Assembly (NCBI GenBank): GCA_964562405.1
Contig: CAZLTC010000005.1
Coordinates: 3,381 to 67,380 of the forward strand
DNA length: 64,000 nt
Direction: 5' to 3'
Source of the DNA: an uncultured bacterium
GTDB lineage: Bacteria > Joyebacterota > Joyebacteria > Joyebacterales > Joyebacteraceae
A program made the position numbers and the translations under genes. This document shows positions 10,421 through 48,975 of this stretch, one piece after another. A model generated the notes under the pieces. It was not told where the DNA came from. It worked only from the letters and a program-made list of their open reading frames with translations, and searched no databases. How positions within the stretch are numbered: the first letter of the stretch is position 1; each line of letters opens with the position of its first letter.

Positions 10421-13204
10421 ATGTCATCACGAGGACGCTGGCGCACGGGTCGCCCCGTGGCCGCCGTCGCGGTATGCCTGCTTCTGATCGCGGCGCTCGC
10501 GGTGGCGCAGTCCTTCACGAGCGAGGACCTCGAGCTTCTGAAGAGCCTCTCCCCCGAACAGAGGGCCGAGCTCTTGAAGGCGTACGGTGCCGCTCCGGCC
10601 GCCGACCAGCAGGCACGGGACGTGAGCACGCCGGACGTCGTCGAGCCCCGGCAGCCGGAGCAGAGCACGACGGAGAGAGAGCTTCTGGAAGAGCAGGAGG
10701 CGTCACGGGCCGAAGAGGTGGCGGAGCCTTCTCAGGCCGAACCGATGGCCGACGGCGCCATCGAGATCAGGAGCGCCTTCAGGAACTTCCTTCAGGAGTC
10801 GCGCGCTGTAGAGGTCGACCAGGATCTCGAGCAGTTCGGGTACGACCTCTTCGCGGGAGCGCCTACCACGTTCGCTCCGGCTACCGACGTGCCTGTCAGT
10901 TCAGACTACATCATTGGTCCCGGCGACGAGATACACGTCCAGCTGTACGGCAAGAGCAATCTGACGACTGACCTCACCGTCGATCGCGACGGCGTGATCT
11001 CCTTTCCGGAGATCGGGCCTCTCACGATCGCAGGCCTCACGTTTCAGGAGATGAAGGACCTCGTCGGCCGCGAGGTGGAAGAGCGCACGATCGGAGTTGA
11101 CGTCAGCGTGTCGATGGGGCGCCTTCGCTCCATCAGGGTGTTCGTGCTCGGCGAGGTCTTCCGCCCGGGCAGCTACACGGTGAGCGGTCTCTCGACGCTG
11201 ACCAACGCGCTCTTCACGAGCGGCGGAGTTCAGAAGATAGGCAGCCTCCGGCACGTGCAGCTGAAGCGCTCGGGTGAGGTCGTCAGCGAGATGGACCTCT
11301 ACGACCTTCTGATACGAGGGGACACCTCCTCGGATGTCAGGCTCATGCCGGGTGATGTGATCTTCATTCCGCCCGTGGGACCGCTGGTCGGAGTCGCCGG
11401 CGAGGTTCTCCGTCCCGCCATATACGAGATGAGCGGGCCCATGACGGCCAGGCAGCTGATCGAGCTGGCCGGCGGGTTGAGGCCGACCGCGTACCGCGAT
11501 CTCGTGCAGCTCGAACGCATCGAGGACGGGCGGCGTGTCACGTACGACATGAGCGCAGAGGGCTCGAAGGAGTGGCCGCTGCAGAACGGCGACCTTCTGA
11601 AGGTGTTCTCCATTACTGACCAGGATGAGCGCGCGATCTTCCTGGAGGGCAACGTCGTGCGGCCCGGCAAGCGCCAGTACTTCGAGGGCATGAGACTCCT
11701 GGACGTGATCCAGTCGCCGGACGACCTGCTCCCGGAGACGTACTTCTCGTATGGGCTGATCGAGCGCGAGAATGAGCTGAACCGGGAGCCGGAGTACGTC
11801 GGCTTCGACCTGCGCCAAGCGCTAATCGACGGTCGCGAGGAAGCAAACGTATTGCTCAAGCCGCGCGACAGGATCTACGTGTTCCACCGCGCGCACTTCC
11901 GAGAGGCTCCGCACGTGCGGGCGCTGGGAGAGGTGAGGTCGCCCGGGGACTTCGAATACAGAAAGGACATGCGTGTTCTCGATCTCATCTTGGCCGCCGG
12001 CGGGCTCACGAGGGACGCGTGGATGCCGACCGCCGAGCTCATGCGCACCGACCCTGCGACGCTCGATGTGGAGAGAATACAGATAGACCTGACGCGTGTG
12101 CTGGCGGATGAGGAGTCGAGCAATGTTCTCCTGAGAGACCTGGATGAGCTCGTGGTCCACTCCGTCTGGGAGTTCCGCGCGCACGACCAGGTCCAGGTCC
12201 TGGGGGAAGTTAACAAGCCGGGCAAGTACCCCCTCTACGAGGGCATGCGCATCTCGGATCTGATCTTCTCGGGCGGCAGCCTCAAGGAGTCGGCATACAG
12301 GCATGAGGCCGAGTTGACCAGATACTCGATCGTCGACGGCGAGAGACGTGAGCTCAAGCAGGTCGTCGTGGACCTGGCGGCGGTCATTGCCGGTTCCGAG
12401 GAAGCGGATCTCGTGCTGCGACCGTACGACAGGCTGCTCGTCCGCAGGATCAGCAACTGGAGGGGCGACGAGGTCGTGGAGGTGACCGGCGAGGTGGTCT
12501 TCCCCGGGGGCTACCCCATAGAGGACGGCGAGAAGCTGTCGCACCTGATCGCGCGATTCGGGGGGTTCCTGAACGACGCGTATCTCCCGGCAGCCGTCTT
12601 CACGCGCGAGGCGGTCCGGTTGCGCCAGAACGAGCAGTTGACCCGGATGGCGGACCAACTGGAGGCCGACCTCTCGAGACTTGCCGTATCGAGCTCGCGC
12701 GATCCATCCTCCGCCGCGACCGCGCAGCGTCAGGAGGCCGTAGAGGCCGGCAATCAGCTCGTGTCGGAGCTGCGCTCGACGCCGGCGACCGGCCGAATGG
12801 TGATCTCGCTCGAGGATGTTCGGGACAAACCGGACGACTACGACATTGTGCTCGTCGACGGCGACGTCCTTCATGTGCCGAGGCGGCCGGACTTCGTGAT
12901 GGTCATGGGGCAGGTCAACAACCCAACGGCGTTCGTCTACGACGAAGGGAAACGCGTCCGGCACTACGTCCGTCTCGCCGGTGGTAAGACGCGGTTCGGC
13001 GACCTCGGCAAGACGTACGTGGTCAGAGCCGACGGGTCGGTCGAGCGCAGCCGCTGGGCCAAGCTGAAACCCGGCGATGTGGTCGTCGTTCCGGAGACGC
13101 TCGAGCGGTTCGCAGGCATGCAGTTCCTGCTGGACATTAGCCAGGTCCTTTATCACATCGGGATCGCCGCGGCCAGTGCCTACACTGTCGGGGTGTTCAA
13201 ATAG
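10421..13204 (+). CDS. Polysaccharide export protein, Wza/GumB/KpsD-like with multiple SLBB repeats (927 aa)
   Basis: ATG 10421 after GGAGG; signal peptide MSSRGRWRTGRPVAAVAVCLLLIAALAVAQS. Poly_export motif IGPGDEIHVQLYGKSNLTTDLTVDRDGVISFPEIGPLTIAGLTFQEMKD, then at least 5 repeats of the PGDxI/V...G.V..PG.Y type (soluble ligand-binding beta-grasp). Confidence 0.85.
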   Translation: MSSRGRWRTGRPVAAVAVCLLLIAALAVAQSFTSEDLELLKSLSPEQRAELLKAYGAAPAADQQARDVSTPDVVEPRQPEQSTTERELLEEQEASRAEEVAEPSQAEPMADGAIEIRSAFRNFLQESRAVEVDQDLEQFGYDLFAGAPTTFAPATDVPVSSDYIIGPGDEIHVQLYGKSNLTTDLTVDRDGVISFPEIGPLTIAGLTFQEMKDLVGREVEERTIGVDVSVSMGRLRSIRVFVLGEVFRPGSYTVSGLSTLTNALFTSGGVQKIGSLRHVQLKRSGEVVSEMDLYDLLIRGDTSSDVRLMPGDVIFIPPVGPLVGVAGEVLRPAIYEMSGPMTARQLIELAGGLRPTAYRDLVQLERIEDGRRVTYDMSAEGSKEWPLQNGDLLKVFSITDQDERAIFLEGNVVRPGKRQYFEGMRLLDVIQSPDDLLPETYFSYGLIERENELNREPEYVGFDLRQALIDGREEANVLLKPRDRIYVFHRAHFREAPHVRALGEVRSPGDFEYRKDMRVLDLILAAGGLTRDAWMPTAELMRTDPATLDVERIQIDLTRVLADEESSNVLLRDLDELVVHSVWEFRAHDQVQVLGEVNKPGKYPLYEGMRISDLIFSGGSLKESAYRHEAELTRYSIVDGERRELKQVVVDLAAVIAGSEEADLVLRPYDRLLVRRISNWRGDEVVEVTGEVVFPGGYPIEDGEKLSHLIARFGGFLNDAYLPAAVFTREAVRLRQNEQLTRMADQLEADLSRLAVSSSRDPSSAATAQRQEAVEAGNQLVSELRSTPATGRMVISLEDVRDKPDDYDIVLVDGDVLHVPRRPDFVMVMGQVNNPTAFVYDEGKRVRHYVRLAGGKTRFGDLGKTYVVRADGSVERSRWAKLKPGDVVVVPETLERFAGMQFLLDISQVLYHIGIAAASAYTVGVFK

Positions 13205-13214
13205 GGGGTCGGCG

Positions 13215-14048
13215 ATGCGCGAGTTCCTCTCGCTGCTCTGGCACCACAGGACACGCCTCGTGGCGACATGGGCGGTCGTGATGGTCGTGGCACTCGTGCG
13301 CCTCTTGACCATGGCCGACGTCTACACCTCGAGCGTGCTCTTGACACCGCTGCCGCTCGAACAGGTGGAGGAGAGTTCACAGTCCGGTATCGGAGGCGGC
13401 ACCGTTCGCAGTCTGCTCGGAAAGGGCTCGTCGCGTGACGAGTTTGCCGTCGTGGCGTTCATGCAGTCCCGCCAGCTGTTGAGCCGTGTGGTCGATGAGC
13501 TGGACCTCACGAAGAAGCTGTTCCCCGGACGGTGGGACGAGCAGAGCAAGAAGTGGCGGGGATCGCGGGGGGGGGAGCCGACCGACGGACAAGCGCGGCG
13601 GGCGCTGGACAGCAAGGTCGACGTTTCTTACGACGAGTTCACGGGTCTCATGGTGCTCGAGGTCAACTGGGAGGACGCCGACGTCGCATACAGGGTGGCC
13701 TCCGCCTTCGTGTCCGTGTCCGACCGCATGCTCCGTGAGGCCGCCGTGGAAGAGGGTGAACGCCGGGTCGCCGAACTCGAGCGGGAGTTGAGCGTCGCCA
13801 CGGTTGGCGACATAGACGTCTACCTCGCCGAGGAGCTGACGCGCGTCATCTCGTCTCTGGCCTCGATACGCGCCAAGGCGAACTACGGTTTCAGAGTCAT
13901 AGATCCTCCCACTCTTCCCGACAGGAGATCGTGGCCCCCCCGTTTCTTGCTCCTGGTGATAGTGGGCATCGTGACCGCTTCGATCGAGGTTGGTGTGCTT
14001 GCCGGCGTGTATCTTCGACTCGGTTCTAGCCACGGCGACTCGGCCTGA
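13215..14048 (+). CDS. Polysaccharide co-polymerase / chain-length determinant (Wzz-like, no kinase domain)
   Basis: ATG 13215 after AGGGGG. N-terminal TM (LVATWAVVMVVALVRLL), periplasmic coiled region (EEGERRVAELERELSV...), C-terminal TM (FLLLVIVGIVTASIEVGVLAGVYL). First gene after the exporter. Confidence 0.65.
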   Translation: MREFLSLLWHHRTRLVATWAVVMVVALVRLLTMADVYTSSVLLTPLPLEQVEESSQSGIGGGTVRSLLGKGSSRDEFAVVAFMQSRQLLSRVVDELDLTKKLFPGRWDEQSKKWRGSRGGEPTDGQARRALDSKVDVSYDEFTGLMVLEVNWEDADVAYRVASAFVSVSDRMLREAAVEEGERRVAELERELSVATVGDIDVYLAEELTRVISSLASIRAKANYGFRVIDPPTLPDRRSWPPRFLLLVIVGIVTASIEVGVLAGVYLRLGSSHGDSA

Positions 14049-14105
14049 GCACTATTGTGCGGCGGCTGATCCATCTCTTGCTCCTCACCGGAGGATGAAG
14101 TCGCG

Positions 14106-15479
14106 ATGCCAGGGGGCGCTAGAGACACGGCGACGGCACTTGCCGGTAAGCTCGGAGTGCTCGTCCTCGGACTGGCGGTGCAAAGCTCACTCGCGTGGGT
14201 GCTCGGTCCCGATGGCAGAGGTTCCTACGCAGTCTGCCTGCTCTTCGCGATCGTCCTGAGCACTCTCTTCTCATTCGGCGTCGACCGTGCGGGCCAATAC
14301 TTCTCTGCATCGGGCAGACTAGAGCCTAATCGCAGTGTTCGCGCAATGATCTTCCTTCTTCTGATCGGATCGTTGCTCGCGGTTGGTGTTGGGTGGGCAC
14401 TGCTCTCTTCAGGCCTGACCTTCTTCCGGAAGGCGGATCACTCATCCTTCCTTGTGGCGCTTGGTATCATCCCGTTGGTCTCCGTTCAGAACGCTCTCCT
14501 CATGGTACTTGGAGGGATGCGTCGCATCGCCTTCATGGCCATCGTCTCCGTGTCAAGCGTAGCCGTACAACTGGCCGCCGCGCTCGTGCTGGTTCTGGGG
14601 TTGAGGCAGGGCGTGAATGGCGCACTATGGTCTGTCATCATTGCCGGAGTCGTCACCGTAGCGGTGACGCTTCACTACATGAGACGCACGGGCTGGCTGA
14701 CGGTCTGTGGCACGGCCTGGCGCGACGCTGGCAGGCTCCTTTCGTACGGACTCAAGTACTACGTTGCCAAGCTGTCGACGGTAGTTCACTTTCGCGTGGG
14801 AACTCTGGCGCTGGCGTTCTTCGTCAGCCCGCACGAGATCGGCCTCTTCGCGGCAGCATCGCAACTCGTTGCCAGACTCACGTTCGTGTCTCAGGCAGTC
14901 GAGACCGCCATCTTCTCCAGGATTGCCATTGACAGCGCTGGTCGTCCTGCGCTTGTTGCGCAGTCCGCGCGCGTCACAATGTACATTGTAGGTGTCCTGC
15001 TATGTCTGCTGCTCGCGCTCAGCTGGCCCATAGTCGCAATCGTCCTCTCTCCAGAGTTCCTTCCGGGTGTTCCACTGGTCTGGATCGTGGCACCGGGGAT
15101 TCTCGTGCGTTCGGGATCGAACGTCCTGATGACGTTCTTCATGGCGACGAACCGGCCGGGCATATGTTCCTGGGCCGTAGGCACGGGAACGGTAGTTGAT
15201 GTGGCCGCCATCGTGCTCATGCTCCCCATGCTCGGCCTGTCGGCTGCGGCCTGGGCCCTGACCCTCGGATACGTCTCCAGTGGAGCGATATTGGTTGCTT
15301 CATTCCACCGCACGACCGGGATCGCGCTTACGGATGCGTGGCGCCCCAGGAGAGAGGATGTGAAAGCTCTGAGGGATGCGCTGAGGACCGTGTTGTCATC
15401 TCTGAAGCTCCGGGTACCGCTCGACTCCCAGGCGGCGTCCCGCCGGGACCGCACTGTGGGATCGAGGAGGGAACAATGA
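14106..15479 (+). CDS. wzx: Wzx-type oligosaccharide flippase (MOP superfamily polysaccharide biosynthesis protein)
   Basis: 457 aa, about 12 TM. N-terminus ALAGKLGVLVLGLAVQSSLAWVLGPDGRGSYAVCLLFAIVLSTLFSFGVDRAGQYF is characteristic of Wzx/RfbX. RBS GGAGG. Confidence 0.8.
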   Translation: MPGGARDTATALAGKLGVLVLGLAVQSSLAWVLGPDGRGSYAVCLLFAIVLSTLFSFGVDRAGQYFSASGRLEPNRSVRAMIFLLLIGSLLAVGVGWALLSSGLTFFRKADHSSFLVALGIIPLVSVQNALLMVLGGMRRIAFMAIVSVSSVAVQLAAALVLVLGLRQGVNGALWSVIIAGVVTVAVTLHYMRRTGWLTVCGTAWRDAGRLLSYGLKYYVAKLSTVVHFRVGTLALAFFVSPHEIGLFAAASQLVARLTFVSQAVETAIFSRIAIDSAGRPALVAQSARVTMYIVGVLLCLLLALSWPIVAIVLSPEFLPGVPLVWIVAPGILVRSGSNVLMTFFMATNRPGICSWAVGTGTVVDVAAIVLMLPMLGLSAAAWALTLGYVSSGAILVASFHRTTGIALTDAWRPRREDVKALRDALRTVLSSLKLRVPLDSQAASRRDRTVGSRREQ

Positions 15480-17137
15480 AAGCCAGGGCGGTCGTGGTGG
15501 GTCTCGATGGCGGAAGCTGGGGAGTGCTGGACGGCTTCGTGCGGGCAGGGCACATGCCGAACTTGGAGCGGCTGATCGAACGAGGTCGCAGGTCGACGCT
15601 CCGGTCGACCACCCCACCCATTACGCCCGTGGCGTGGGCCAGCTTTGCCACCGGGATGGAACCTGGCGGACACGGCGTGTTCGGATTCGGGTCGCAGCGC
15701 GCAGCGCCTGGGTCCTACATGCCACCGCCTGCGCGGCGCGATACAATAGCAGCGCCTACTCTCTGGCGTCGTCTGACCGAAGAGGGGATGGTCTCGATCG
15801 TCCTTAATGTCCCGCTCACCTATCCGCCCGAACCGATTCGCGGGTCTCTCGTGACGGGCATGTTCACCCCGGGGCTGCAGTCCGACTGCACCTACCCTCC
15901 TGAACTCAAGGGTGTGCTCAGCGAGCGCGATAGCATGCCGCGCTTCAACACTCGGGCCGCGGCGGGGCTCAGGGCGGCACTCGAAGCCGGGAGTCACGAC
16001 GCGATTCGCAGAGCGAAACTGGACTACCTCTCCGACCTGGACGACATGACGGAGCATTTGGTCCGCGCGCTTCGTTATTTGGGCAGCGGGGAGTTCGATC
16101 TTATGGCGGCGGTCTTCGTTGCCACCGACAGAGTGCAACACTGGATGTGGGACGAGGTGCTGGCGGCTGCGACTGGTGAATGTGACGAGATAGGAACGCG
16201 CATCTGTGAGCTCTACCGCAACGTGGACAAGGGCATCGGAGTCGCCACGGAACTTGCGGGGGAAGACGGAGCCATCTTCTTGATGTCAGATCATGGGTTC
16301 GGCTCATGTGCAGGGCAGTTCGCCGTGAACGCGGTTCTCGTGGACCGGGGGTACGCGGCTGCACGGAGGCAACGTCTGCTTCCCAAGGTGAAGCGGATGC
16401 TCAGGCGAGCCGCGGTCCCGAATCGCCTGCGACGAAAGGTATCCCTGAGCAAGATTGGTCAGCGGGCAGTTGGTGCCATGGATGCTCTCGACTGGGCCAG
16501 AACCAGTGCCTACTTCGTTCCAGGAACCAACGGCGTTAGAATCAACGTGCGGGGGAGAGAGGTCAACGGGATCATCAAGCCGGGAGCGGAGTATGAGCGA
16601 CTCAGGATCGAACTGCGCGACATTCTGACAGAGGCTGCTGATCCCGAGACCGGAGCCCGTCCCATAGAGCGCGTACAACTGCGAGAGCACGTGTATGATG
16701 GAGAGCTTGTCCAGTGGGCCCCGGATCTGATACTCCTCCCCGGCGAAGAGCGCGGCTATGTCCTTGCAGCCGGAGATCCCGGCGCCGACGGTCCCATTAC
16801 GCACCCCCCTCACAGTCGCGGAAGCCACAGACAGAGTGGGATCTTTCTGGCGCACGGACCCGGGATCGGAGAGGGCGTGGCGAACGCCGAGGTTGCGATT
16901 TGCGACGTGGCTCCAACCATAATGAAGTGGCTGGGGGTTCCCGTTCGCGACCACATGGATGGCGTTCCTCTCGATGCCGTGGCTTCTCCGGTGAGAGTTG
17001 GTCGGTCTGCTGAACCGCACACGTTCCCAGGAGCGGCAGCCGGCCGGAGCGGCGAAGCGGCGGGTGATGGGAAGTACACAAGGACGGAAGAGGAGATAAT
17101 CCGCCGCAGGCTGGAGGATCTTGGTTATCTGAGCTGA
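15476..17137 (+). CDS. Alkaline-phosphatase-superfamily type I phosphodiesterase/nucleotide pyrophosphatase-like protein
   Basis: ATGA overlap with the wzx stop. MKARAVVVGLDGGSWGVLDGFVRAGHMPNLERLIERG...TTPPITPVAWASFATG is the metal-ligand region of the PF01663-type AlkP core (recognised from memory of the family). Confidence 0.65.
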   Translation: MKARAVVVGLDGGSWGVLDGFVRAGHMPNLERLIERGRRSTLRSTTPPITPVAWASFATGMEPGGHGVFGFGSQRAAPGSYMPPPARRDTIAAPTLWRRLTEEGMVSIVLNVPLTYPPEPIRGSLVTGMFTPGLQSDCTYPPELKGVLSERDSMPRFNTRAAAGLRAALEAGSHDAIRRAKLDYLSDLDDMTEHLVRALRYLGSGEFDLMAAVFVATDRVQHWMWDEVLAAATGECDEIGTRICELYRNVDKGIGVATELAGEDGAIFLMSDHGFGSCAGQFAVNAVLVDRGYAAARRQRLLPKVKRMLRRAAVPNRLRRKVSLSKIGQRAVGAMDALDWARTSAYFVPGTNGVRINVRGREVNGIIKPGAEYERLRIELRDILTEAADPETGARPIERVQLREHVYDGELVQWAPDLILLPGEERGYVLAAGDPGADGPITHPPHSRGSHRQSGIFLAHGPGIGEGVANAEVAICDVAPTIMKWLGVPVRDHMDGVPLDAVASPVRVGRSAEPHTFPGAAAGRSGEAAGDGKYTRTEEEIIRRRLEDLGYLS

Positions 17138-17205
17138 TCGGCCGTACCGCATCTGCACCAGGAGGGCACACGAGTTCGAGACTCCGAGTCGCGTTCGTCG
17201 GCGAT

Positions 17206-19616: not shown

Positions 19617-19697
19617 AGGGATGTGTGCGTTCTGGCGCGGTCGGTGATCGATCGGCCTGACGCGGCCTGCCCGAGACAGCACTGAGGTGGTGGCCGG

Positions 19698-22024: not shown

Positions 22025-22067
22025 CAGGCGGAAGCGCCGCCTCCGGCGTCCGCGTGGAGGTAGTGGC

Positions 22068-23132: not shown

Positions 23133-24507
23133 GGGCGTGGGATTCGAGAGCAGACGCAGGCTGTACGAATCAATGCCGTCGTGGCTCAAGGCCGGCGTTA
23201 GGCTCGTGCCTTTCGGTTGGATCGCCGGCCCTTCGTACAGACGTACCATGGCGCGGGCGAAGCGCTTCGAGCGGGCGTCCGCCGCGGAGATCCTGACCTG
23301 GACCGAGAAGGCCCTCCGCGAGATACTCGATTTCGCCACCTCCGAGGTGCCGGCGTACCGTCCTCACAGGGGAGACTTCGAGCGCCACAGGCCGTTCGAG
23401 GCCCTTAAGGCGTTCCCGCTTCTCGACAAGGACGCGCTGCAGGAGAGATGGCCCGAGTACCTCCCGCGCAGGCTGTCGGAGCTCCCTCATTACGAGATCT
23501 CGACGGGCGGAACGAGCGGGAACCAGCTCCGGTTCCTGGTCGACGACGACTCGCAATCGGTGGAGACCGCGTTCGTCCACCGCGTCTGGAGCTGGGTGGG
23601 ATACACCCCGAGGTCCACCAAGGCGACGTTTCGCGGCGTGACCTTCGCGAACCTGCCGCCGGGCGTCTACTGGCAGTCGAATCCGATCTACGGGGAGCTT
23701 CAGTTCTCTCCGTTCCACATGAACGAGAAGACGCTTCCCGCATACATGGAGCGCCTCGTGAGCTTCGCCCCGGACTTCCTGCATGGCTATCCGTCGGCCA
23801 TCGACACGCTCGCGGAGTATGTGCTCCGAACCGGAGCCGCCGAGAGGATCCCGCCGATCAAGGCGGCGCTGCTCGCGTCGGAAGCGTGCGGGCCCGACCA
23901 GCGCGAGCGGATAGCGCGCGCGTTCGGGACCAGGGTCTTCCCGATATACGGTCACAGCGAGAGGCTCATCCTTGGCGCCGAGTGCGAGCGTGAGCACGTC
24001 TACCATCACGTTCCGGACTACGGCGTCCTCGAGATCGTCACCGCGGACGGCTCGCCGTGCTCGACCGAGGGAGAGAGGGGAGAGCTGGTGGGCACCGGAC
24101 TGCACAACCGCTCCATGCCGCTCATCCGGTACAGGACCGGCGACCTGGCGACACGCATGGAGCGCGCCTGTTCGTGCGGCCGCTCATGGGAGCGTTTCAC
24201 GGACGTGGAGGGGCGATGGAAGCAGGATTTCCTGCAGGGCAGGGACGGCGCCAGGATCTCCCTGACCGCGCTCAACATGCACGGTCCCGTCCTGCGGAAC
24301 GTCGTCAGATACCAGTACGTGCAAAGCGAACCGGGGATCGCGGTGTTCCGTGTCGTGCCTTCCCCCGAGTTCGGGGAAGAGGATCGGCGCGGGATCGAAA
24401 CCGCCTTCCATGACAAGGTCGGCGACCAGATAGATCTGAGCGTGGAGGTCGTCGATTCCATTGAGCTGACCGAACGCGGGAAGCTCAGGAGGCTCGTTCT
24501 CGAGTAG
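23116..24507 (+). CDS. Phenylacetate-CoA ligase-like adenylate-forming enzyme (CapK family), paralog 2
   Basis: STGGTSGNQLRFLVDDD, IYGHSERLILGAECE, IRYRTGDLATR align with paralog 1 (18210..19616). Start ambiguous (GTG 23116, GTG 23137 or ATG 23173). Confidence 0.7.
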   Translation: MTIGSEGVGFESRRRLYESMPSWLKAGVRLVPFGWIAGPSYRRTMARAKRFERASAAEILTWTEKALREILDFATSEVPAYRPHRGDFERHRPFEALKAFPLLDKDALQERWPEYLPRRLSELPHYEISTGGTSGNQLRFLVDDDSQSVETAFVHRVWSWVGYTPRSTKATFRGVTFANLPPGVYWQSNPIYGELQFSPFHMNEKTLPAYMERLVSFAPDFLHGYPSAIDTLAEYVLRTGAAERIPPIKAALLASEACGPDQRERIARAFGTRVFPIYGHSERLILGAECEREHVYHHVPDYGVLEIVTADGSPCSTEGERGELVGTGLHNRSMPLIRYRTGDLATRMERACSCGRSWERFTDVEGRWKQDFLQGRDGARISLTALNMHGPVLRNVVRYQYVQSEPGIAVFRVVPSPEFGEEDRRGIETAFHDKVGDQIDLSVEVVDSIELTERGKLRRLVLE

Positions 24508-24527
24508 CACGCGGGATGGAGTGCCGC

Positions 24528-26183
24528 ATGACAGGCGTCGGTAGATACGCGCGAACGCTGCGCTACCTGCGGGTCAGACAGATCGTAGCGCGGGCGCTCA
24601 GGATGGCCGTCCGGGCGTGCCCGAGTGCGGCTGAGCGCCCACCGCTCCGCGAACGGCGGGCCGGCATCGCTGAACCTCCGGCACGCGAGCCCGAGTGGCT
24701 CGCGATGGACAGGGTCAGGATCCTCAATGTCGAGAGGGAGATGCCCGGCGGCATAGGCTGGGAGCCCGATGACGTTCCGAGGCTCTGGAAGTACCACCTC
24801 CACTACTTCTCCGACCTGCCCGGCCGAGCGCGGGACGAGAGTTCTGCGTGGCTTGCCGACGTCGTACGGTCTTGGATCTCCTCCTGCCCTCCGGGGACCA
24901 GAGACGCCTGGGACCCCTACCCGACCTCGCTCCGGGTCATGAACTGGACGAAGTGGCTGCTGCAGCTTCCGGACGAACAACGCGACGAGGAGATGCTCCA
25001 GAGCCTTGCGGTTCAGGTCAGGCAACTGGAGCGTTCGGTCGAGCATGACATCTCGGGGAACCACATCTTCGCGAACGCGTCAGCGCTGTGCGCTGCTGGG
25101 CTTCTGTTTGACGGCGAGGAGGCCGCGCGCTGGCTTTCCGCCGGACGGAGGCTGCTCGGCCGAGAGCTCGGGGAACAGGTGCTCCCGGACGGTGGACACT
25201 ACGAGCGCTCTCCCATGTATCACGCGATCGTCCTCGAGCAGATCCTCGACGTCCTCAACATCTCGCAGGGGCTGCCGGGCCATGAGGGCGCCGCGCTCGA
25301 GGGATTCAGAGCAGAGCTCACGTCCGCGGCCGAACGCATGCTCCCGTGGCTCGTCACGATGACTCACCCGGACGGGGGGCCTTCGTTCTTCAACGACACG
25401 ACGATGGGTGTGGCTCCCGCGCTCGAGCAGCTCCTGGCCTACGCATCGAGACTCGGGCTGGAGCTTCCGCCCGCGAGCGCCGCTGGCACCACGGCCCTCC
25501 AAGAGAGCGGCTACTTCCGGCTCGTGTCCGACCGCGGCGACACCGTGGTCATCTTCGACGCCGGTCCGATCGGTCCGGACCACCAGCCCGGGCACGGCCA
25601 CTGCGATGTGCTGTCGTTCGAGGTCTCCAGGGCGGGGAGGAGAGTGCTCGTGAACTCGGGCGTGTCCACATACGAGCCCGGACCCGAGCGCCTCAGGCAG
25701 CGCGGAACCTCGGCCCACAACTCCGCGCGCGTCGACGGGGAGGAGTCGTGCGAGCTCTGGGGCTCTCACAGGTGCGGCAGGAGACACGGGATCCTCTCGG
25801 CCTCGCTGTCAGGACGGACCGCGGAGGGAATTCACACGGGCTTCGCGCATCTCCCGGGCAGTCCCTTCCATCACAGGAGCGTCGAGGTGTCCGAGGGCGG
25901 CGTCCACATTCGGGACGGGTTCGACGGCGAGGGAGAACACCTCGTCGAATGGTGGCTGCGCGTCCATCCGGATCTTGAGGCGCGCGCCGAGCGCGGGGGC
26001 TTTGTCCTGCGGGCAGGCGGGAGCGTAGTGGGGCTGCTCCGGTTCCCGCCTGAGACCGCACCGTCTCTCGGAGAGTCCACCTGGCATCCAGGCTTCAATC
26101 TATGCCGGCCCTGTCCGATCGTAACAGCCACGTGGCGCGGACGGTTGCCCGCTGACTTCGAGTTCGAGATCATCTGGGAGTAG
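24528..26183 (+). CDS. Heparinase II/III-like protein (Hepar_II_III family; in biosynthetic loci usually a non-lytic modifying enzyme)
   Basis: WKYHLHYFSDL...VMNWTKWLL...GNHIFANASALCAAGLLF...DGGHYERSPMYHAIVLEQ...HGHCDVLSFEV match heparinase II/III-like N- and C-domain motifs as seen in O-antigen/capsule loci (from memory of the family). Confidence 0.65.
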   Translation: MTGVGRYARTLRYLRVRQIVARALRMAVRACPSAAERPPLRERRAGIAEPPAREPEWLAMDRVRILNVEREMPGGIGWEPDDVPRLWKYHLHYFSDLPGRARDESSAWLADVVRSWISSCPPGTRDAWDPYPTSLRVMNWTKWLLQLPDEQRDEEMLQSLAVQVRQLERSVEHDISGNHIFANASALCAAGLLFDGEEAARWLSAGRRLLGRELGEQVLPDGGHYERSPMYHAIVLEQILDVLNISQGLPGHEGAALEGFRAELTSAAERMLPWLVTMTHPDGGPSFFNDTTMGVAPALEQLLAYASRLGLELPPASAAGTTALQESGYFRLVSDRGDTVVIFDAGPIGPDHQPGHGHCDVLSFEVSRAGRRVLVNSGVSTYEPGPERLRQRGTSAHNSARVDGEESCELWGSHRCGRRHGILSASLSGRTAEGIHTGFAHLPGSPFHHRSVEVSEGGVHIRDGFDGEGEHLVEWWLRVHPDLEARAERGGFVLRAGGSVVGLLRFPPETAPSLGESTWHPGFNLCRPCPIVTATWRGRLPADFEFEIIWE

Positions 26184-26387
26184 AGCCGCACACACGCGAC
26201 GACACCCGCGGAGCGCGAGCGGGTCCTGCGCGAACAGGGAGATGCGCGGGCACGGCCCGGAGGCGAGACGGGATTCCGGTTGCGCCGACGTCCCAATCTC
26301 TGCGAACATCCACTGATGATCTCTCATTCGGCGCCGCCCACACCGCGGTTCGCCGCTTGGTGGAGACGCGAACGTGGAGGTTGCTCC

Positions 26388-27488
26388 ATGAGAGTAGTGC
26401 TCATAGCCGGCGCCAGGCCGAATTTCATGAAGGTCGCGCCCCTCAGGGAGGCGCTCGCCCGCCGGCCTGATGTGGAGCCCATCATCGTACACACCGGCCA
26501 GCACTACGATGACATGATGTCGGCCGCCTTCTTCAGAGAGCTCAGGATACCCGCGCCCGACCGCAACCTCGGGGTAGGCTCGGCGTCACATGCGGTGCAG
26601 GCGGCTCGCATCATGCAGGCCTTCGACGCGTTTCTCGACCAGGAGGCCGTCGACGCGGTGGCCGTGGTCGGAGACGTCAACTCGACTCTCGCCTGCTCGG
26701 TGACCGCGGTGAAGAGAGGCATTCCCGTCGCTCACGTCGAGGCCGGCCTCCGCAGCTTTGATTGGAGCATGCCCGAGGAGATCAACCGGATCGTCACGGA
26801 TTCGGTATCGTCGTTCCTCTTCACGCCGTCGCGTGACGCGGACGAGAACCTGAGGAGAGAGGGGAGGTCCGACGAGGACATCTACTTCGTGGGCAACGTA
26901 ATGGTCGACACGCTCCTCAGGTTCAAGGACGAGGCGCTGGCCAGGGACGAGGTGCTGTTCCATCTGGGCCTGACGCCGGGTTCGTACGCGATGCTGACTC
27001 TGCACCGGCCGGCGAACGTCGACCAGCGGCCCGTGTTCGAGGGTGTGCTCGAGGCGATCGAGGTGATCGCGCGCGACATTCCGGTCGTCTACCCGATGCA
27101 CCCGAGGAGCGTCAAGACGCTCGAGGCGGTGGGGCTGGGTGGGCGCGCGCGGTCGATCGACGGGCTGGTGCTGACGGGGGCGCTCGGCTACATCGACTTC
27201 ATCGCTCTCGAGGGACGAGCCAAGTTCGTCATGACAGACTCCGGCGGCGTGCAGGAGGAGACGACGGTGCTTGGCGTGCCGTGCCTTACCCTTAGGCCCA
27301 ACACCGAGAGACCCGTTACGATAAGCCACGGGACCAACAGGCTCGTCGGCACCGACAAGGACGCGCTGATCGCGGCCGCGCGCGATGTCATGGGTTCCGG
27401 CGAGACAAGGACCGAGGGCCCCCCGGAGCTGTGGGACGGCCGAACCTCGGAACGCATAGCCGATGTGCTCGAGAAAGGACTGGGATGA
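26388..27488 (+). CDS. wecB: UDP-N-acetylglucosamine 2-epimerase (non-hydrolysing)
   Basis: ATG after GGAGG. MRVVLIAGARPNFMKVAPL...HTGQHYD...GDVNSTLA...HVEAGLRSFD...TDSGGVQEE is a canonical WecB/MnaA pattern. Confidence 0.9.
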   Translation: MRVVLIAGARPNFMKVAPLREALARRPDVEPIIVHTGQHYDDMMSAAFFRELRIPAPDRNLGVGSASHAVQAARIMQAFDAFLDQEAVDAVAVVGDVNSTLACSVTAVKRGIPVAHVEAGLRSFDWSMPEEINRIVTDSVSSFLFTPSRDADENLRREGRSDEDIYFVGNVMVDTLLRFKDEALARDEVLFHLGLTPGSYAMLTLHRPANVDQRPVFEGVLEAIEVIARDIPVVYPMHPRSVKTLEAVGLGGRARSIDGLVLTGALGYIDFIALEGRAKFVMTDSGGVQEETTVLGVPCLTLRPNTERPVTISHGTNRLVGTDKDALIAAARDVMGSGETRTEGPPELWDGRTSERIADVLEKGLG

Positions 27489-27492
27489 CGAC

Positions 27493-28617
27493 ATGAAGGT
27501 GCCGCTTCTGGATCTCAAGAGACAGTACCGTACGATCAAGCCCGAGATCGACACGGCGATCGAGGAGGTCGTCGAGTCGCAGGTGTTCAAGCTGGGTCCG
27601 AAGGTGACCGACTTCGAGGACCGGGTGGCGGAGTATTGCGGGACGAAGAGGGCGGTCGGCGTGGCGTCCGGCTCCGACGCGCTCCTTCTCGCGCTCATGG
27701 CGGTGGGCGTCGGCCGTGATGACGAGGTGATCACAACCCCGTACACGTTCTTCGCGACAGGCGGCGCCATCGCGCGGCTCGGGGCCGTTCCGGTGTTCGT
27801 CGACATCGACCCGCTCACGTACAACATGGACCCCGGGTTGATCGAGCAGGCGATCACGGACAGGACACGCGCCATCATGCCCGTTCACCTCTACGGCCAG
27901 TGCGCCGACATGGACCCGATCATGGAGATAGCCTGCCGCAGCGGGATCCCCGTCATCGAGGACGCCGCCCAGGCAATAGGAGCCGAGTATCGGGGTCGCC
28001 GCGCGGGTTCGATCGGTGCGCTCGGCTGCTTCAGTTTCTTCCCGAGCAAGAACCTCGGCGGGTACGGTGACGGAGGAATGATAACGACCGATGACTCAGA
28101 GGTGGCCGACCTTCTGATCAGCCTCCGCGAGCACGGCCAGACCCTCAGGGATGGCGGGCAGACCGAGATGTATCACCACTGGACGATCGGGCTCAACAGC
28201 CGGCTCGATGCGCTTCAGGCGGTCGTCCTGGCGGTGAAGCTGCGCCACCTCGATGAGTGGAGCGATGGCCGCGCGCGGAACGCGGCCTACTACCGGTCGA
28301 GGTTCGAGGGGTCGCCCGTTATGGCTCCTCACGTCCTGCCGGAGTCACGCCACATCTACAACCAGTACGTGATCCGTGTCTCCAACCGCGACGCGCTCCG
28401 CGAGCACCTCAAGGAGAACGGGATCGGCTGCGCGCTCTACTACCCCGTCCCGCTGCACCTGCAGTCGTGCTTCTCCTCGCTCGGCATGGGCTCGGGCGAT
28501 ATGCCTGAGGCCGAGAGGGCGTCGGCGGAGACGCTCTCCATACCGGTCTTCTCGCTCCTGACGGAAGAGGAGAGGGATTACGTCGCAACGACGATCCTCG
28601 GATTCGTGAGAGCGTAG
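27493..28617 (+). CDS. DegT/DnrJ/EryC1/StrS-family PLP-dependent sugar aminotransferase
   Basis: MKVPLLDLKRQY...VASGSDALLLAL...ITTPYTFFATGGAI...FSFFPSKNLGGYGDGG (Lys in SKNLG is the PLP-binding lysine) are hallmarks of the family. Confidence 0.9.
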   Translation: MKVPLLDLKRQYRTIKPEIDTAIEEVVESQVFKLGPKVTDFEDRVAEYCGTKRAVGVASGSDALLLALMAVGVGRDDEVITTPYTFFATGGAIARLGAVPVFVDIDPLTYNMDPGLIEQAITDRTRAIMPVHLYGQCADMDPIMEIACRSGIPVIEDAAQAIGAEYRGRRAGSIGALGCFSFFPSKNLGGYGDGGMITTDDSEVADLLISLREHGQTLRDGGQTEMYHHWTIGLNSRLDALQAVVLAVKLRHLDEWSDGRARNAAYYRSRFEGSPVMAPHVLPESRHIYNQYVIRVSNRDALREHLKENGIGCALYYPVPLHLQSCFSSLGMGSGDMPEAERASAETLSIPVFSLLTEEERDYVATTILGFVRA

Positions 28618-28628
28618 GGGGCTTAAGG

Positions 28629-29546
28629 ATGCGGCGCGCGTCCGCCGGGCGTCACATCGATCCTCGCTCGCCGCGGGGCTACTACGTCGACCACTCTCGA
28701 GCGGCCGGCCCGACCGCCATCGGCGCGGACGGGCTGCCGGAGCTCAGGAGGCCGGTCGACGGCCACACGCATTCAGCTCTCGAGGTTGCCCGCTGGGGTC
28801 TGGGCAACCTCGAGCTGTACCTGGAGAGCGGAAACACCGCGAGGCGCGACGGGTTCGAGCGCGCCGCGAGGTTCCTCATCGACACCATCGAGGTCGTGCC
28901 CTCCAGCTTCGGGGGCTGGGCCATGCCGCCCGCGCCGCCTCCCTACGGCAGGTTGCTTCCGAGGGGCCATTTCGCCGCAGGTGCGCAGGGCGAGTGTCTG
29001 TCGGTCGTCGTGAGGGCGTGGACGCTGCTCGGCGCCGACGGCGCCGAGCAGACGGCGGACAGGGCCGCCGCCGCACTGGCCGCGCCGATCGCCGATGGAG
29101 GACTTCTGAGGGAGATAGGCGAGCCGACGGGTGTCGCGGGACTCGACTCGCTGGCCTTCCTCGAGGAGTACCCTCTCGAAGAGCGCCCTGTGATGGACTT
29201 GTCGGGACACGTTCGGGGTCTTCTTGGCGTCCACGACTACTGGCTGGCGAGCGGTGATCCCACCGCCGGCTCGCTGCGGGAACGCTGCATTCGGGGCCTG
29301 GCCTTCGTGCTCGACCGGTTCGACCTTGGATACTGGACGCTGGACGACCTCGACGTCGCCGCGCCGGGCCTCAGTCTGTCGAGTCCTTACGCGTTGAGGG
29401 AACACATCTTGCATGCGTTCACCCTGGCCGAGGTATTCAACAGCGAATCGTTTCACGACGCCGCCCTTCGTTGGCGCTCCTATCAAGCGAGCCCGCTGTG
29501 CCGCACCCAGGCCCTCGTGCGCAGAGCGGCCGGTCGCCTGACGTGA
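28629..29546 (+). CDS. D-glucuronyl C5-epimerase C-terminal-domain-like protein (tentative)
   Basis: 305 aa, no signal peptide. Pattern ...ALEVARWGLGNLELYLESGN...GGW...LSGHVRGLLGVHDYWLASGD...LDRFDLGYWTLDDL resembles the (alpha/alpha)-barrel C5-epim_C domain. Assigned from recollection of the family, not from a search. Confidence 0.45.
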   Translation: MRRASAGRHIDPRSPRGYYVDHSRAAGPTAIGADGLPELRRPVDGHTHSALEVARWGLGNLELYLESGNTARRDGFERAARFLIDTIEVVPSSFGGWAMPPAPPPYGRLLPRGHFAAGAQGECLSVVVRAWTLLGADGAEQTADRAAAALAAPIADGGLLREIGEPTGVAGLDSLAFLEEYPLEERPVMDLSGHVRGLLGVHDYWLASGDPTAGSLRERCIRGLAFVLDRFDLGYWTLDDLDVAAPGLSLSSPYALREHILHAFTLAEVFNSESFHDAALRWRSYQASPLCRTQALVRRAAGRLT

Positions 29547-29675
29547 GGCATATCTCCCCCATTGTGAATGTCATTCGTTCCGACTCGACCGCCTGTGGGC
29601 TTTCGCGAGGGCGGGCTTCGTGCTAGATTTCTCGGAACGGTCTTGTGCTGTGGTCCGGTGCCGGAGGTTGGAGGC

Positions 29676-31019
29676 TTGGTCGGACTCGGACAGATTTGGT
29701 GCGCTCTCGCCATGCTCGGCGCCACCGGCGTCGCGTCCTGGCTTCTGATGAAGCCGGCCGCACGCCTCGGGCTGTACCTTGGCCTCGTCGACCTCCCGAG
29801 CACGCGCCGGACCAGGGCGAGACCCATCCCCACCACGGGGGGGCTCGTTGTGTTCGTCGTGTTCATCGCCGCCATGACGATCTCTCTGCGGCTCTGCGGA
29901 GGAGGATTCGAACCAGACGTTCTCGTCAAGTACTCGGCCCTCACAAGCGGCGGCATCGTCATCGTCATACTCGGGATGCTCGATGACCGCTTGAACCTCC
30001 GCCCTCACATCAAGCTGGTCGTACAGACGGCGGTGGCAGTGACGATGGTGGCCTCCGGAGTAGGCATAGAGCACGTCAAGTTCCTCGTCGGGCCGCTTCA
30101 CCATCTCGGCTGGCTCACGTATCCCGTCACCGTCTTCTGGTTCGTTGGATTCATGAACGCCATCAATCTCGTAGACGGCCTCGACGGCCTTGCGGGGGGC
30201 ATTGCCGCCATCGGTGCGGCAGCGCTCTTCGCTGTCGGCGTCATCAATGAGAATGTCCTTCTCTATCTGATGGCGGCCGCCCTGCTGGGAAGCACCGTCG
30301 GCTTCCTGCTGCACAACTTCAGGGAGGGCAACATCTACCTGGGTGATGCGGGAAGCATGGTGCTCGGGTTCTTCCTGGCGGGGGGCTCCGTTGTCGGCGC
30401 CTACGGCGACGGTGCGAGCAACGCGCTCCTGGTTGCGGGCGCGTGCATGGCGATCCCGGCGTTCGACGTCGTGACGACGATCGTCCGGCGCAGCAAGTCG
30501 CACAAGGGAGTGATGACGCCGGACCGCGCTCACACGCACCACCGGCTGATCCGTTTCGGGTTGAACCCGAAGGCGGCCGTCGTGGTGCTCTGGTGCATCA
30601 CGCTCTTCTTCGGCGGGCAGATGCTAGGGCTCGTGGCTTCTCACGGGCTGGTCTACGTGCTGGGGAGCTACGTGGCGGCGGCTGCGGTGGCCAACGTGAT
30701 CGTCGACCAGCACAGGAAGAACACGCGGACGATACAGAGCGACCTCCGGGAGGAGGTCCTCTATCTTGCTGGACTGCCGAGGACGCTCTCCGCGCCCGAC
30801 GCGCACGACGGGATGACGCTCCGCGAACTCATCGTGGCGCAGATCCGCCGCGAGGCCCGGTACCGCAGGCTGGTGAGGGAAGAGAAGAACCCACCGACGG
30901 GCGGCGTGCCCGAGCTTCAGACGGCTCCTCGCGGCCGGTCCTCCGCCGTGCGGTCCCGCGTCCCCGAAGAGGCCGCGGGCGGCCTCCTCACGGAAGATGA
31001 AGACCACCGCGCCGACTGA
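29676..31019 (+). CDS. wecA: Undecaprenyl-phosphate N-acetylhexosamine-1-phosphate transferase (WecA/MraY superfamily) with an about 120-aa hydrophilic C-terminal extension
   Basis: Probable TTG start 8 nt after GGAGG (alternative ATG 29712). ...GLVDLPSTRRTRARPIPTTGGLVVF..., MNAINLVDGLDGLAGG, NIYLGDAGSMVLGF are WecA/MraY signatures. The tail after residue about 360 is charged and non-membrane. Confidence 0.8.
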   Translation: MVGLGQIWCALAMLGATGVASWLLMKPAARLGLYLGLVDLPSTRRTRARPIPTTGGLVVFVVFIAAMTISLRLCGGGFEPDVLVKYSALTSGGIVIVILGMLDDRLNLRPHIKLVVQTAVAVTMVASGVGIEHVKFLVGPLHHLGWLTYPVTVFWFVGFMNAINLVDGLDGLAGGIAAIGAAALFAVGVINENVLLYLMAAALLGSTVGFLLHNFREGNIYLGDAGSMVLGFFLAGGSVVGAYGDGASNALLVAGACMAIPAFDVVTTIVRRSKSHKGVMTPDRAHTHHRLIRFGLNPKAAVVVLWCITLFFGGQMLGLVASHGLVYVLGSYVAAAAVANVIVDQHRKNTRTIQSDLREEVLYLAGLPRTLSAPDAHDGMTLRELIVAQIRREARYRRLVREEKNPPTGGVPELQTAPRGRSSAVRSRVPEEAAGGLLTEDEDHRAD

Positions 31020-31165: not shown

Positions 31166-33838
<2,673 letters not shown>

Positions 33839-43961: not shown

Positions 43962-44064
43962 CGCTGCGCGGGCGCGATTGCCCGCGGGCGGGGCGGCCAC
44001 CGGGACGAGCCCGGCTCGAGGCCAGGACGGGCGGCGAACGAGCCGCGCACACGGAGATGAGACC

Positions 44065-46206: not shown

Positions 46207-46223
46207 GGAGGCTTGAGACCAAC

Positions 46224-47003: not shown

Positions 47004-47081
47004 GCTCCGCGGCGGAGCAGGCGCCGTGCCCGACCGGCGGCCCCCAGCGGCGCGCTCGGTCATAGGAGGCCGCGACCGCCC

Positions 47082-48068: not shown

Positions 48069-48077
48069 CGGCGCCGA

Positions 48078-48923: not shown

Positions 48924-48975
48924 TCCATACCGGCGTATCGGTTTCTGAGAGCGCTGACACGAAGGGAGTGTCTTC

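Follow-up and report, generated by a model that had tools for sequence, protein, structure and literature searches.

A compact surface-glycan locus occupies positions 10421-31019 of a 64,000-nucleotide stretch of contig CAZLTC010000005.1 from an uncultured bacterium of the Joyebacterota (the whole stretch is referred to here as the window), where it comprises 15 tightly packed genes in about 20 kb, all on the + strand. We put at roughly one half the probability that this locus builds a surface polysaccharide that contains a uronic acid, itself inferred, together with residues of L-configuration and amide-linked groups. Judged by gene content, Wzx/Wzy-dependent assembly and export of a surface polysaccharide is certain; the set is complete, with a WecA-type initiator, two GT4 glycosyltransferases, Wzx, Wzy, Wzz, and a giant SLBB-rich Wza, and the transmembrane (TM) profiles fit these roles.

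The genes were defined from six-frame open reading frames (ORFs) and the G+C content of third codon positions (GC3), and families were assigned by Pfam and NCBIfam profile searches; coordinates are those of the queried ORF unless a refined start is given. Upstream lies an S8 peptidase (subtilase) gene (8419-10227) unrelated to the glycan genes, and downstream lie a pyruvate phosphate dikinase gene (ppdK, 31166-33838) and genes for a Fer4_5 protein and a Sir2 protein, and since these flanks are housekeeping or unrelated genes the boundaries of the locus are correct. They are also those given in a preliminary description of this DNA, which had proposed a Wzx/Wzy locus whose complement of tailoring genes is unusual; profile matches for all six assembly functions bear this out, and every gene named there was recovered by Pfam or NCBIfam, including the families C5-epim_C (E = 5.5e-16), Hepar_II_III (2e-18 for the N-terminal and 5e-42 for the C-terminal domain), and PGA_cap (1e-32). 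The C5-epimerase-like and heparinase-like ORFs thus match their own families, and the two CapK paralogs are not PaaK.

The AlkP-type, PGA_cap, CapK1, CapK2, heparinase-like, and C5-epimerase-like proteins all lack a signal peptide or TM segment, and the locus encodes seven soluble, signal-less tailoring enzymes in total. Tailoring is therefore predicted to be cytoplasmic, on nucleotide sugars or on oligosaccharides linked to undecaprenyl pyrophosphate, and for the same reason the heparinase-like and C5-epimerase-like proteins would not act on an exported polymer in the way that heparinases and the animal glucuronyl C5-epimerase GLCE do. Inversion of a uronic acid at C5, which the preliminary description had linked to the C5-epimerase-like gene, remains a reasonable reading of both genes, but its placement at the polymer level is not supported.

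The heparinase-fold protein

The heparinase II/III-fold enzyme (24516-26183, +) gave an AlphaFold2 model with a predicted local distance difference test score (pLDDT) of 94.4, for which the best Foldseek match was heparinase III (5jmf, E = 1e-23), followed by lyases of families PL17, PL33, and PL15. It has the (alpha/alpha) toroid and beta-sandwich of the fold, and the catalytic positions of heparinase III are matched in the alignment (the Asn of GNH, the Tyr-His of YH, and the His of HN). At E<=1e-30 an exhaustive search returned 2830 representatives of sequence clusters, almost all of them close to 550 aa long, and when 42 diverse members were aligned, N182/H183, Y235/H236, H360, and H401 proved invariant. 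When one genome per species was scanned, such genes turned up in at least 594 species, with hosts that include Lysobacter, Sphingopyxis, Massilia, Nitrospira, Acidobacteria, Planctomycetes, and one archaeon.

The company that these genes keep is not that of a secreted, catabolic lyase. We counted partners in the best 80 heparinase-like loci of the species scan, with the window proteins and three added references as queries, and all 80 sampled species have the gene in a biosynthetic locus. A dedicated GT4 accompanies it in 75 of the 80 loci and an oxidoreductase of about 710 aa with ADH_zinc_N and GFO_IDH_MocA domains in 67; a 2-epimerase is present in 49, a UDP-sugar dehydrogenase in 18, CapK in nine, and DegT in five, while a C5-epimerase-like gene (in locus L013, with the gene order of the Eisenbacteria loci described below) and a PGA_cap gene were each found in one, and an AlkP-type gene in none. 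The protein of the window is 36% identical to an E. coli homologue found in O-antigen loci and on plasmids, the chromosomal O-antigen locus of strain AR_0077 (L093) reading galF-wecB-wecC-GT4-GT4-...-Hep-GT4-gnd. We also observed that in four complete E. coli genomes the O-antigen cluster between galF and gnd contains wecB-wecC as well as a heparinase II/III gene, after which comes a GT4 gene, and that an IS26-bounded segment of O-antigen type, wecB-wecC-DUF2837-wzy-GT-heparinase-like-GT4-nucleotidyltransferase, is present on conjugative IncC plasmids of both E. coli and Enterobacter, as in E. coli pCRE10.2 (L092; NZ_CP034402.1, 62.7-74.5 kb). In five loci of the species scan, from several lineages (L088, L054, L079, L027, and L021), a set of three ORFs (about 380, 204, and 260 aa) lies ahead of the genes for the 710-aa oxidoreductase and the heparinase-like protein; the 383-aa ORF of L088, the one member of these sets that was scanned, gave weak PP-loop and Asn_synthase matches. 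In size the three recall a WbpG-like amidotransferase, HisH, and HisF, a combination that would hint at sugars that are amidated or bear acetamidino groups.

Literature searches for this biosynthetic family gave postulates and no biochemical characterization. A Vibrio vulnificus homologue is required for capsule (PMC6037467), and the heparinase-like GnlB (WeeF) of Acinetobacter is postulated, with GnlA (WeeE), to make the UDP-activated form of N-acetyl-L-galactosaminuronic acid, UDP-L-GalNAcA (PMC9676051; preprint). Human dermatan-sulfate epimerase 1 (DS-epi1) is a C5 epimerase with a heparinase-like fold and catalytic layout, and its authors argue that slight alterations of the active site turn a lyase into an epimerase (PMC8006597). 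From sequence and gene context we conclude that the protein of the window is a cytoplasmic tailoring enzyme and not a glycosaminoglycan lyase, and most likely a candidate epimerase that would abstract a proton beside a sugar carboxylate. The label "heparinase-like" accordingly survives for fold and family, but the link to glycosaminoglycans drawn from it does not, as the associations of the family are with wecB/wecC and with a postulated route to L-GalNAcA. A full L-GalNAcA cassette of the GnlA/GnlB type was considered for the window and rejected, as neither the oxidoreductase nor the dedicated GT4 is present; the two GT4 proteins encoded in the locus, GT4a and GT4b, are not orthologous to the latter.

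The C5-epimerase-like protein

The product of the C5-epimerase-like gene (28629-29546, +; C5-epim_C) is a predicted cytoplasmic protein of 305 aa that corresponds to the C-terminal helical domain of GLCE alone. Its AlphaFold2 model (pLDDT 87) is most similar in Foldseek to GLCE (4pxq/6i01, E = 4e-10, TMq 0.55) and next to cellobiose 2-epimerases and other barrels of the AGE superfamily. It therefore shares with GLCE the C5-epim_C domain and the alpha-helical barrel, but has neither the N-terminal beta-hairpin and beta-sandwich of GLCE nor a location that would fit action on a polymer in the secretory compartment. The catalytic residues of GLCE, in human numbering, are E499, Y500, N510, Y560, and Y578 (PMC13308652); E180/Y181 of the window protein occupy the positions of E499/Y500 and hardly vary within its family, and opposite Y578 a Tyr lies one position off.

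V. cholerae VpsJ (PMC13463779) and Halobacterium (Hbt.) salinarum Agl32 each consist of a single domain and are implicated in the C5 epimerization of short lipid-linked glycans, and the secondary fold neighbours of our model are the ones reported for both. In the loci of Candidatus Eisenbacteria the gene consistently adjoins the 2-epimerase and DegT genes. The best reading is that the protein epimerizes a short cytoplasmic substrate, for which the catalytic evidence is incomplete.

CapK paralogs

Two adenylate-forming enzymes of the ANL superfamily are encoded, CapK1 (18210-19616, +, start approximate) and CapK2 (23173-24507, +), which are 27% identical (E = 8e-31). Their ANL and PaaK-like matches all fall below cut-offs: the PaaK model TIGR02155 gives 38 and 64 bits against a cut-off of 646 bits, and NF041878 gives 64 and 76 bits against 700, so that both proteins lie far under the PaaK and F390 equivalog thresholds, and no paa genes were found in the annotated ORFs of the window. 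The earlier view that they are not bona fide phenylacetate-CoA ligases is upheld by these scores. Motifs A3, A7, A8, and the A10 Lys are present in both, while the A5 pattern is matched in CapK2 only, CapK1 having YGSRE at that place. A protein identical to CapK2 (444 aa) carries a precomputed PF27533 (CapK_C) match, as do the CapK1-type orthologues of loci L095 and L096, and both proteins thus combine the ANL core motifs with a CapK_C-bearing family in a polysaccharide locus, as expected of CapK-type ligases.

The two paralogs belong to separate orthogroups with distinct partners. CapK2 has at least 805 relatives across metagenomes, many of them 55-62% identical, and its orthologues in L003, L005, L008, L010, and L096 (580-817 bits) adjoin the heparinase-like gene except in L010. 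CapK1-type orthologues (368-466 bits, L095 and L096) accompany PGA_cap, Wzx, and Wzy genes. A Nitrospira locus has the order GT4-PGA_cap-methyltransferase-CapK-Hep-GT4. In V. cholerae the PaaK/CapK-like protein VpsH is needed for a glycine amide on N-acetyl-L-gulosaminuronic acid (L-GulNAcA) at the lipid-linked stage (PMC13463779, mBio 2026), which supplies a genetic precedent for the amide decoration that the preliminary description had suspected.

The 2-epimerase and aminotransferase

Two enzymes of nucleotide-sugar metabolism look more specific than their original names, "WecB" and "DegT amino sugar," implied, although both family assignments hold. The non-hydrolyzing UDP-N-acetylhexosamine (UDP-HexNAc) 2-epimerase (26388-27488, +; Epimerase_2 6e-100; TIGR00236, 305 bits, over the cut-off) has as its nearest solved relative an enzyme of the WbpI/WlbD type, the 2-epimerase of UDP-2,3-diacetamido-2,3-dideoxy-glucuronic acid (UDP-GlcNAc3NAcA; 8sxv, 290 bits), compared with 167 bits for E. 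coli WecB. The pyridoxal phosphate-dependent DegT aminotransferase (27493-28617, +; DegT 2e-118) has as its nearest named solved relatives the C3 aminotransferases WbpE (312 bits), DesV (2oga, 306 bits), and QdtB (301 bits), with C4 enzymes of the ArnB type at about 180 bits. Together these sequence relationships suggest a sugar of the ManNAc3NAcA type, a 2,3-diamino-uronic acid, an assignment that is only a lead because no gene of the window supplies the WbpA, WbpB, or WbpD step.

Proposed pathway and alternative explanations

In the pathway that we propose, a WecA-type transferase would initiate the lipid-linked unit, which the GT4 enzymes would extend with a manno-configured amino- or diamino-uronic acid. 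This sugar would derive from a UDP-HexNAc-type precursor through the WbpI-like 2-epimerase and the WbpE-like C3 aminotransferase, with the carboxylate, keto, and N-acetyl steps presumably encoded elsewhere in the genome. The heparinase-fold enzyme, the minimal GLCE-like barrel, or both would then invert the center beside the carboxylate, mainly C5, to give an L-gulo or L-galacto residue; this would occur in the cytoplasm on a nucleotide sugar or an undecaprenyl pyrophosphate-linked oligosaccharide, and the finished polymer would be neither cut nor epimerized. The CapK ligases would adenylate a carboxylate and form amides, most likely by amidating the uronic acid carboxyl with an amino acid or amine, by analogy with VpsH, and a cassette of CapK1, PGA_cap, Wzx, and Wzy may add a second, strain-specific decoration along with the matching flippase and polymerase. 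Flipping by Wzx, polymerization by Wzy/Wzz, and export through Wza would complete the process.

Several findings weigh against this proposal. The annotated ORFs of the window include no UDP-glucose, UDP-GlcNAc, or UDP-ManNAc 6-dehydrogenase (UDPG_MGDP_dh), no WbpB-type 3-dehydrogenase or GFO/IDH/MocA oxidoreductase, and no acetyltransferase for an N-acetyl step, so that both the uronic acid and the keto substrate of the aminotransferase are assumed; a 4,6-dehydratase was likewise not found among them. In the C5-epimerase-like protein, N510 and Y560 of GLCE are replaced by Ser and Asp. Neither of the two near-universal partners of the heparinase-like family, the 710-aa oxidoreductase and the dedicated GT4, is encoded in the window, and the function may differ here. 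The 2-epimerase scores nearly as well against an archaeal UDP-GlcNAc 2-epimerase (4neq, 277 bits) as against its best match (290 bits), which makes that assignment not decisive, and among solved structures the aminotransferase scores highest against 7b0d, an entry named glutamine--scyllo-inositol transaminase, at 353 bits ahead of WbpE at 312. The heparinase-like, CapK2-type, and PGA_cap subfamilies have no member with a biochemically proven reaction, and VpsH and VpsJ were likened to the window proteins from published descriptions.

Two other explanations bear mainly on the heparinase-fold protein. The preliminary description had favored an acidic, heparosan-like glycosaminoglycan. On this reading a polymer of glucuronic acid and HexNAc would be C5-epimerized to iduronic acid at the polymer level by the GLCE-like protein and trimmed by the heparinase-like lyase. 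The Pfam matches to C5-epim_C and Hepar_II_III and the top structural matches to GLCE and heparinase III are what such a polymer would call for, but the glycosyltransferases of the locus are exclusively GT4 (GT-B) enzymes with no GT2/GT45-type glycosaminoglycan synthase, assembly is by Wzx/Wzy, no UDP-glucose dehydrogenase was found, and a KpsMT-type ATP-binding cassette (ABC) capsule exporter is absent, the sole ABC components in the window being those of a sugar-uptake system (47082-50208). With both putative modifying enzymes lacking signal peptides, the C5-epimerase-like protein lacking the N-terminal domains, Asn510, and Tyr560 of GLCE, and the heparinase-like family keeping company with wecB/wecC and O-antigen loci and not with glycosaminoglycan synthases, we consider such a product very improbable. 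A housekeeping role, in which the heparinase-like protein would degrade mislocalized or surplus polymer in the manner of AlgL and take no part in biosynthesis, has been proposed for V. vulnificus VV0358 (PMC6037467) and fits the conserved lyase catalytic triad. We nonetheless regard it as unlikely, given that the protein has no signal peptide, that the gene adjoins nucleotide-sugar enzymes and a dedicated glycosyltransferase in 75 of the 80 loci, and that the V. vulnificus mutant loses its capsule (PMC6037467).

The other two concern the chemistry of the sugar and deserve somewhat more weight, although each is still improbable. The amide may be reversed. In that case the CapK enzymes, after activating an organic or amino acid in its free form, would N-acylate the amino group that the DegT enzyme places on the sugar, and would stand in for the missing N-acetyltransferase. 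A C3-aminotransferase-like gene in a locus with no acetyltransferase, and the compatibility of ANL chemistry, speak for this arrangement, whereas CapK2-type genes lie beside a heparinase-like gene with no DegT gene in the fetched stretch (L008 and L015-L017 among others), and VpsH, the sole genetic precedent, places glycine on a sugar carboxylate. To a similar degree it is conceivable that no uronic acid is involved, and that the heparinase-fold and C5-epimerase-like proteins make a neutral L-hexosamine (for instance L-GalNAc or L-GulNAc from UDP-ManNAc) while the CapK enzymes act on something else; the absence of a dehydrogenase from the window is explained in this way, and the Acinetobacter baumannii KL215 locus, which has gnlB alone, is predicted to make N-acetyl-L-galactosamine (PMC9676051). 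Deprotonation at C5 with no carboxylate would, however, require transient oxidation at C4, for which the locus has no oxidoreductase; in addition, the substrates of the WbpE- and WbpI-type relatives are UDP-uronic acids, and the CapK precedent requires a carboxylate. We prefer a uronic acid that is epimerized and amidated in the cytoplasm.

PGA_cap and AlkP-type proteins

The PGA_cap/CapA protein has a metallophosphoesterase fold and an uncertain start (about 17170-18210, +). The first canonical start codon is GTG 17206 and the public gene model begins at ATG 17218, but the conserved VAFVGD motif, which holds the Asp of the GD motif (Asp11 in the lasso-peptide epimerase MslH), is encoded upstream of 17206, in an in-frame stretch that has no ATG, GTG, or TTG and in which AGGAGG (17160-17165) is followed by ACG 17170. 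The gene may have a non-canonical start or be truncated at its 5' end, or the assembly may contain an error. The protein belongs to a small subfamily with homologues of 340-352 aa that are 40-46% identical, and is weakly similar to MslH (E = 2.9e-6 and 0.0025), a calcineurin-fold enzyme that acts on the C-terminal residue (Trp) of its peptide. Residues that align with MslH or fit its motifs include the GD Asp, the NFE Glu, the Asn, His, and Asp of NNH-x-x-D, and H-x-H. Poly-gamma-glutamate synthesis of the CapA/PgsA kind was considered and set aside, as no PgsB- or PgsC-type family was matched in the locus or the annotated ORFs of the window; here a CapK-type ligase is the partner of PGA_cap in place of PgsB/PgsC.

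A more speculative scheme, to which we give little credence, is that CapK1 ligates an L-amino acid to the uronic acid carboxyl, which would create a peptide-like C-terminus on which PGA_cap could invert the terminal alpha-carbon as MslH does and leave a D-amino acid, with the heparinase-fold and minimal GLCE-like proteins serving as cytoplasmic C5 epimerases of nucleotide- or lipid-linked (di)amino-uronic acids. Were this true, the CapK1/PGA_cap module and the cytoplasmic C5 epimerases would define new enzyme classes for glycan tailoring.

The AlkP-superfamily protein (15476-17137, +; Phosphodiest 1.8e-28), which resembles phosphodiesterases and pyrophosphatases, is a predicted cytoplasmic protein with no signal peptide and with weak similarity in the PDB to phosphonoacetate hydrolase. 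Its gene is conserved just upstream of the Wzy gene in L003 and L005, and none of the 80 heparinase-like loci from other lineages contains it.

Genomic setting and cassette exchange

The phylum is little studied and known here from metagenome-assembled genomes alone, and the closest organism-named homologues of the C5-epimerase-like protein are from metagenome-assembled genomes of Candidatus Eisenbacteria. Exact-sequence look-ups gave no entry for the PPDK protein and, for the C5-epimerase-like protein, an identical sequence on a 1.7-kb JGI contig alone. Related contigs have a glycan locus at the matching place, directly upstream of ppdK-fer4-sir2 and the gene of a 1778-aa Glucodextran_C protein. 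Six of the compared loci (L002, L003, L005, L006, L013, and L096) adjoin ppdK, the subtilase-wza pair, or both, and differ in their inner genes. L003 and L005 share the core module AlkP-Wzy-GT4-GT4-CapK2-Hep-Epimerase_2-DegT-C5epi-WecA, and L013 has Hep-epimerase-DegT-C5epi-WecA, while L002 has no heparinase-like or CapK gene, retains Epimerase_2, DegT, and C5epi, and has in addition a GFO_IDH_MocA gene beside the C5-epimerase-like gene, a GT9 gene, and a methyltransferase gene. L096 reads S8-Wza-Wzz-Wzx-PGA_cap-Wzy-CapK-GT4-GT4-CapK-Hep-(PHO4)-Epimerase_2. By gene order, the locus is a conserved-position, variable-content surface-glycan site in Candidatus Eisenbacteria, comparable to O-antigen or K loci.

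Within it, the Wzx, AlkP, PGA_cap, and CapK1 genes (14106-19616) have a GC3 of 0.68-0.72 against 0.81-0.87 for the other genes, which suggests that the flippase and decoration genes were acquired or exchanged separately. PGA_cap accompanies Wzx, Wzy, and CapK1-type genes in both L095 and L096, and the CapK1-PGA_cap-Wzx-Wzy set behaves as a swappable cassette. The gene combination had been presented as one that matches no described capsule type; as a statement of uniqueness this fails, since L096 has both CapK types, PGA_cap, and a heparinase-like gene, and the core module is found again in several metagenome-assembled genomes of Eisenbacteria, but a part of the novelty stands in that the combination has no characterized polymer. 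The unusual gene families all have published or recurring precedents, except for the AlkP-type enzyme, which recurs in sister Eisenbacteria loci only.

Assembly and export genes

The locus opens with the Wza/OPX export protein (10421-13204, +; Poly_export 2e-20), in which Pfam detects an array of six SLBB and four SLBB_2 stretches, whose TIGR03027 score of 180.5 bits equals the model cut-off, and whose N-terminus, read from ATG 10421, is hydrophobic and signal-peptide-like. A Wzz-like chain-length determinant of the polysaccharide copolymerase type follows (13215-14048, +; Wzz 3e-6), with two TM segments and no tyrosine kinase domain, and then the Wzx flippase (14106-15479, +; Polysacc_synt 2e-10), with at least nine hydrophobic segments and a GC3 of 0.71. 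The Wzy polymerase (19698-20909, +; Wzy_C 6.5e-11; GC3 0.83) has nine hydrophobic segments. GT4a (20861-22024, +; Glyco_trans_1_4 5e-28, Glyco_transf_4 5e-15) has as its top NCBIfam match TIGR03088, a PEP-CTERM/XrtA glycosyltransferase model (131 bits). In GT4b (22068-23132, +; Glyco_trans_1_4 2e-23) the C-terminal GT1 domain alone was detected, a pattern repeated in L003, L005, and L008, and the top NCBIfam match is TuaC of teichuronic acid synthesis (62 bits). The last gene encodes a HexNAc-1-phosphate transferase of the WecA/WbpL/MraY family (29568-31019, +, start uncertain; Glycos_transf_4 4e-37), with nine hydrophobic segments and a TIGR02380 score of 139 bits, under the cut-off. An exosortase (PEP-CTERM/XrtA) system, suggested by TIGR03027 and TIGR03088, was rejected because the window has no exosortase or PEP-CTERM genes. 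Between 12000 and 31400, promoter prediction gave two candidates against a shuffle expectation of 2.0, and terminator prediction gave 12 against 7.4±2.6 in shuffles, near expectation, with none of them intergenic.

Wider window and significance

Three secreted proteins encoded in the window have FlgD_ig/CHU_C-type C-termini that resemble type IX secretion sorting signals: the S8 subtilase (8419-10227), the 1778-aa Glucodextran_C/Big_1 protein (36105-41441), and a Lamin-tail-domain protein (58365-60068). A gene for a PorV/PorP-like outer-membrane protein lies at 41457-42329, and 42387-56121 is an alpha-glucan (starch/glycogen) utilization cluster with genes for CBM48/AMPK1_CBM proteins, one of them fused to a TonB-dependent-receptor-like barrel, a sugar ABC transporter, GH57, and amylo-alpha-1,6-glucosidase.

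The locus is compact and syntenic, and brings together several orphan enzyme families, the biosynthetic heparinase-fold proteins, CapK ligases, minimal GLCE-like barrels, and a PGA_cap subfamily, of which the CapK-type ligases have only just been tied genetically to amino-acid amidation, in V. cholerae. It offers a defined gene set for working out how L-configured hexosaminuronic acids and their amides arise in bacterial glycans, and it illustrates that "heparinase" or "glucuronyl C5-epimerase" labels in biosynthetic loci are not evidence for glycosaminoglycans.

Comparison with known systems

With animal GLCE the C5-epimerase-like protein shares the C5-epim_C domain, the alpha-helical barrel, and the Glu-Tyr pair; it differs in being a cytoplasmic protein of 305 aa made up of the C-terminal domain only, in having Ser for Asn510 and Asp for Tyr560, and in occurring with no heparosan synthase. 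MslH and CapA/PgsA have in common with the window the PGA_cap domain, and the MslH-type motif residues are present, but the window has no PgsB, PgsC, or lasso-peptide genes, the similarity to MslH is weak, and the codon for the Asp lies upstream of the canonical starts.

The UDP-ManNAc3NAcA pathway, as in Pseudomonas aeruginosa B-band synthesis (WbpA/B/D/E/I) and Bordetella (WlbA-D), is represented by the WbpE-like and WbpI-like proteins, whereas the window encodes no homologue of WbpA, WbpB, or WbpD and thus has two of the five enzymes; the GFO_IDH_MocA gene beside the C5-epimerase-like gene of the sister locus L002 adds to the likeness. The GnlA/GnlB (WeeE/WeeF) systems of Acinetobacter K loci and A. 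venetianus RAG-1, together with the E. coli O-antigen loci, likewise have a heparinase-fold protein in a Wzy-dependent locus, linked to a 2-epimerase (in E. coli also to wecC) and to a postulated L-configured N-acetyl-hexosaminuronic acid. The window differs in lacking the 710-aa ADH/GFO oxidoreductase, which we infer to be GnlA/WeeE, and the dedicated GT4. The link to GnlB/WeeF is drawn from published descriptions and from the 36% identity to the E. coli homologue, and the function of GnlB is postulated.

A further parallel may be drawn with the Vibrio polysaccharide (VPS) locus of V. cholerae (vpsA-K, PMC13463779), which has Wzx/Wzy assembly, a UDP-HexNAc 2-epimerase, the PaaK/CapK-like VpsH, and the small alpha-helical-barrel protein VpsJ, a proposed cytoplasmic C5-epimerase of a lipid-linked uronic acid (PMC13463779) whose reported fold neighbours, cellobiose and GlcNAc 2-epimerases, were also found for our model. 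Unlike VPS, the window has no VpsB-type dehydrogenase or acetyltransferases, and its initiator is of the WecA type, while VPS uses VpsL to form bactoprenyl-pyrophosphate-glucose. Beyond the VPS set it adds a heparinase-fold enzyme, a C3-type aminotransferase, a second CapK, PGA_cap, and the AlkP-type enzyme.

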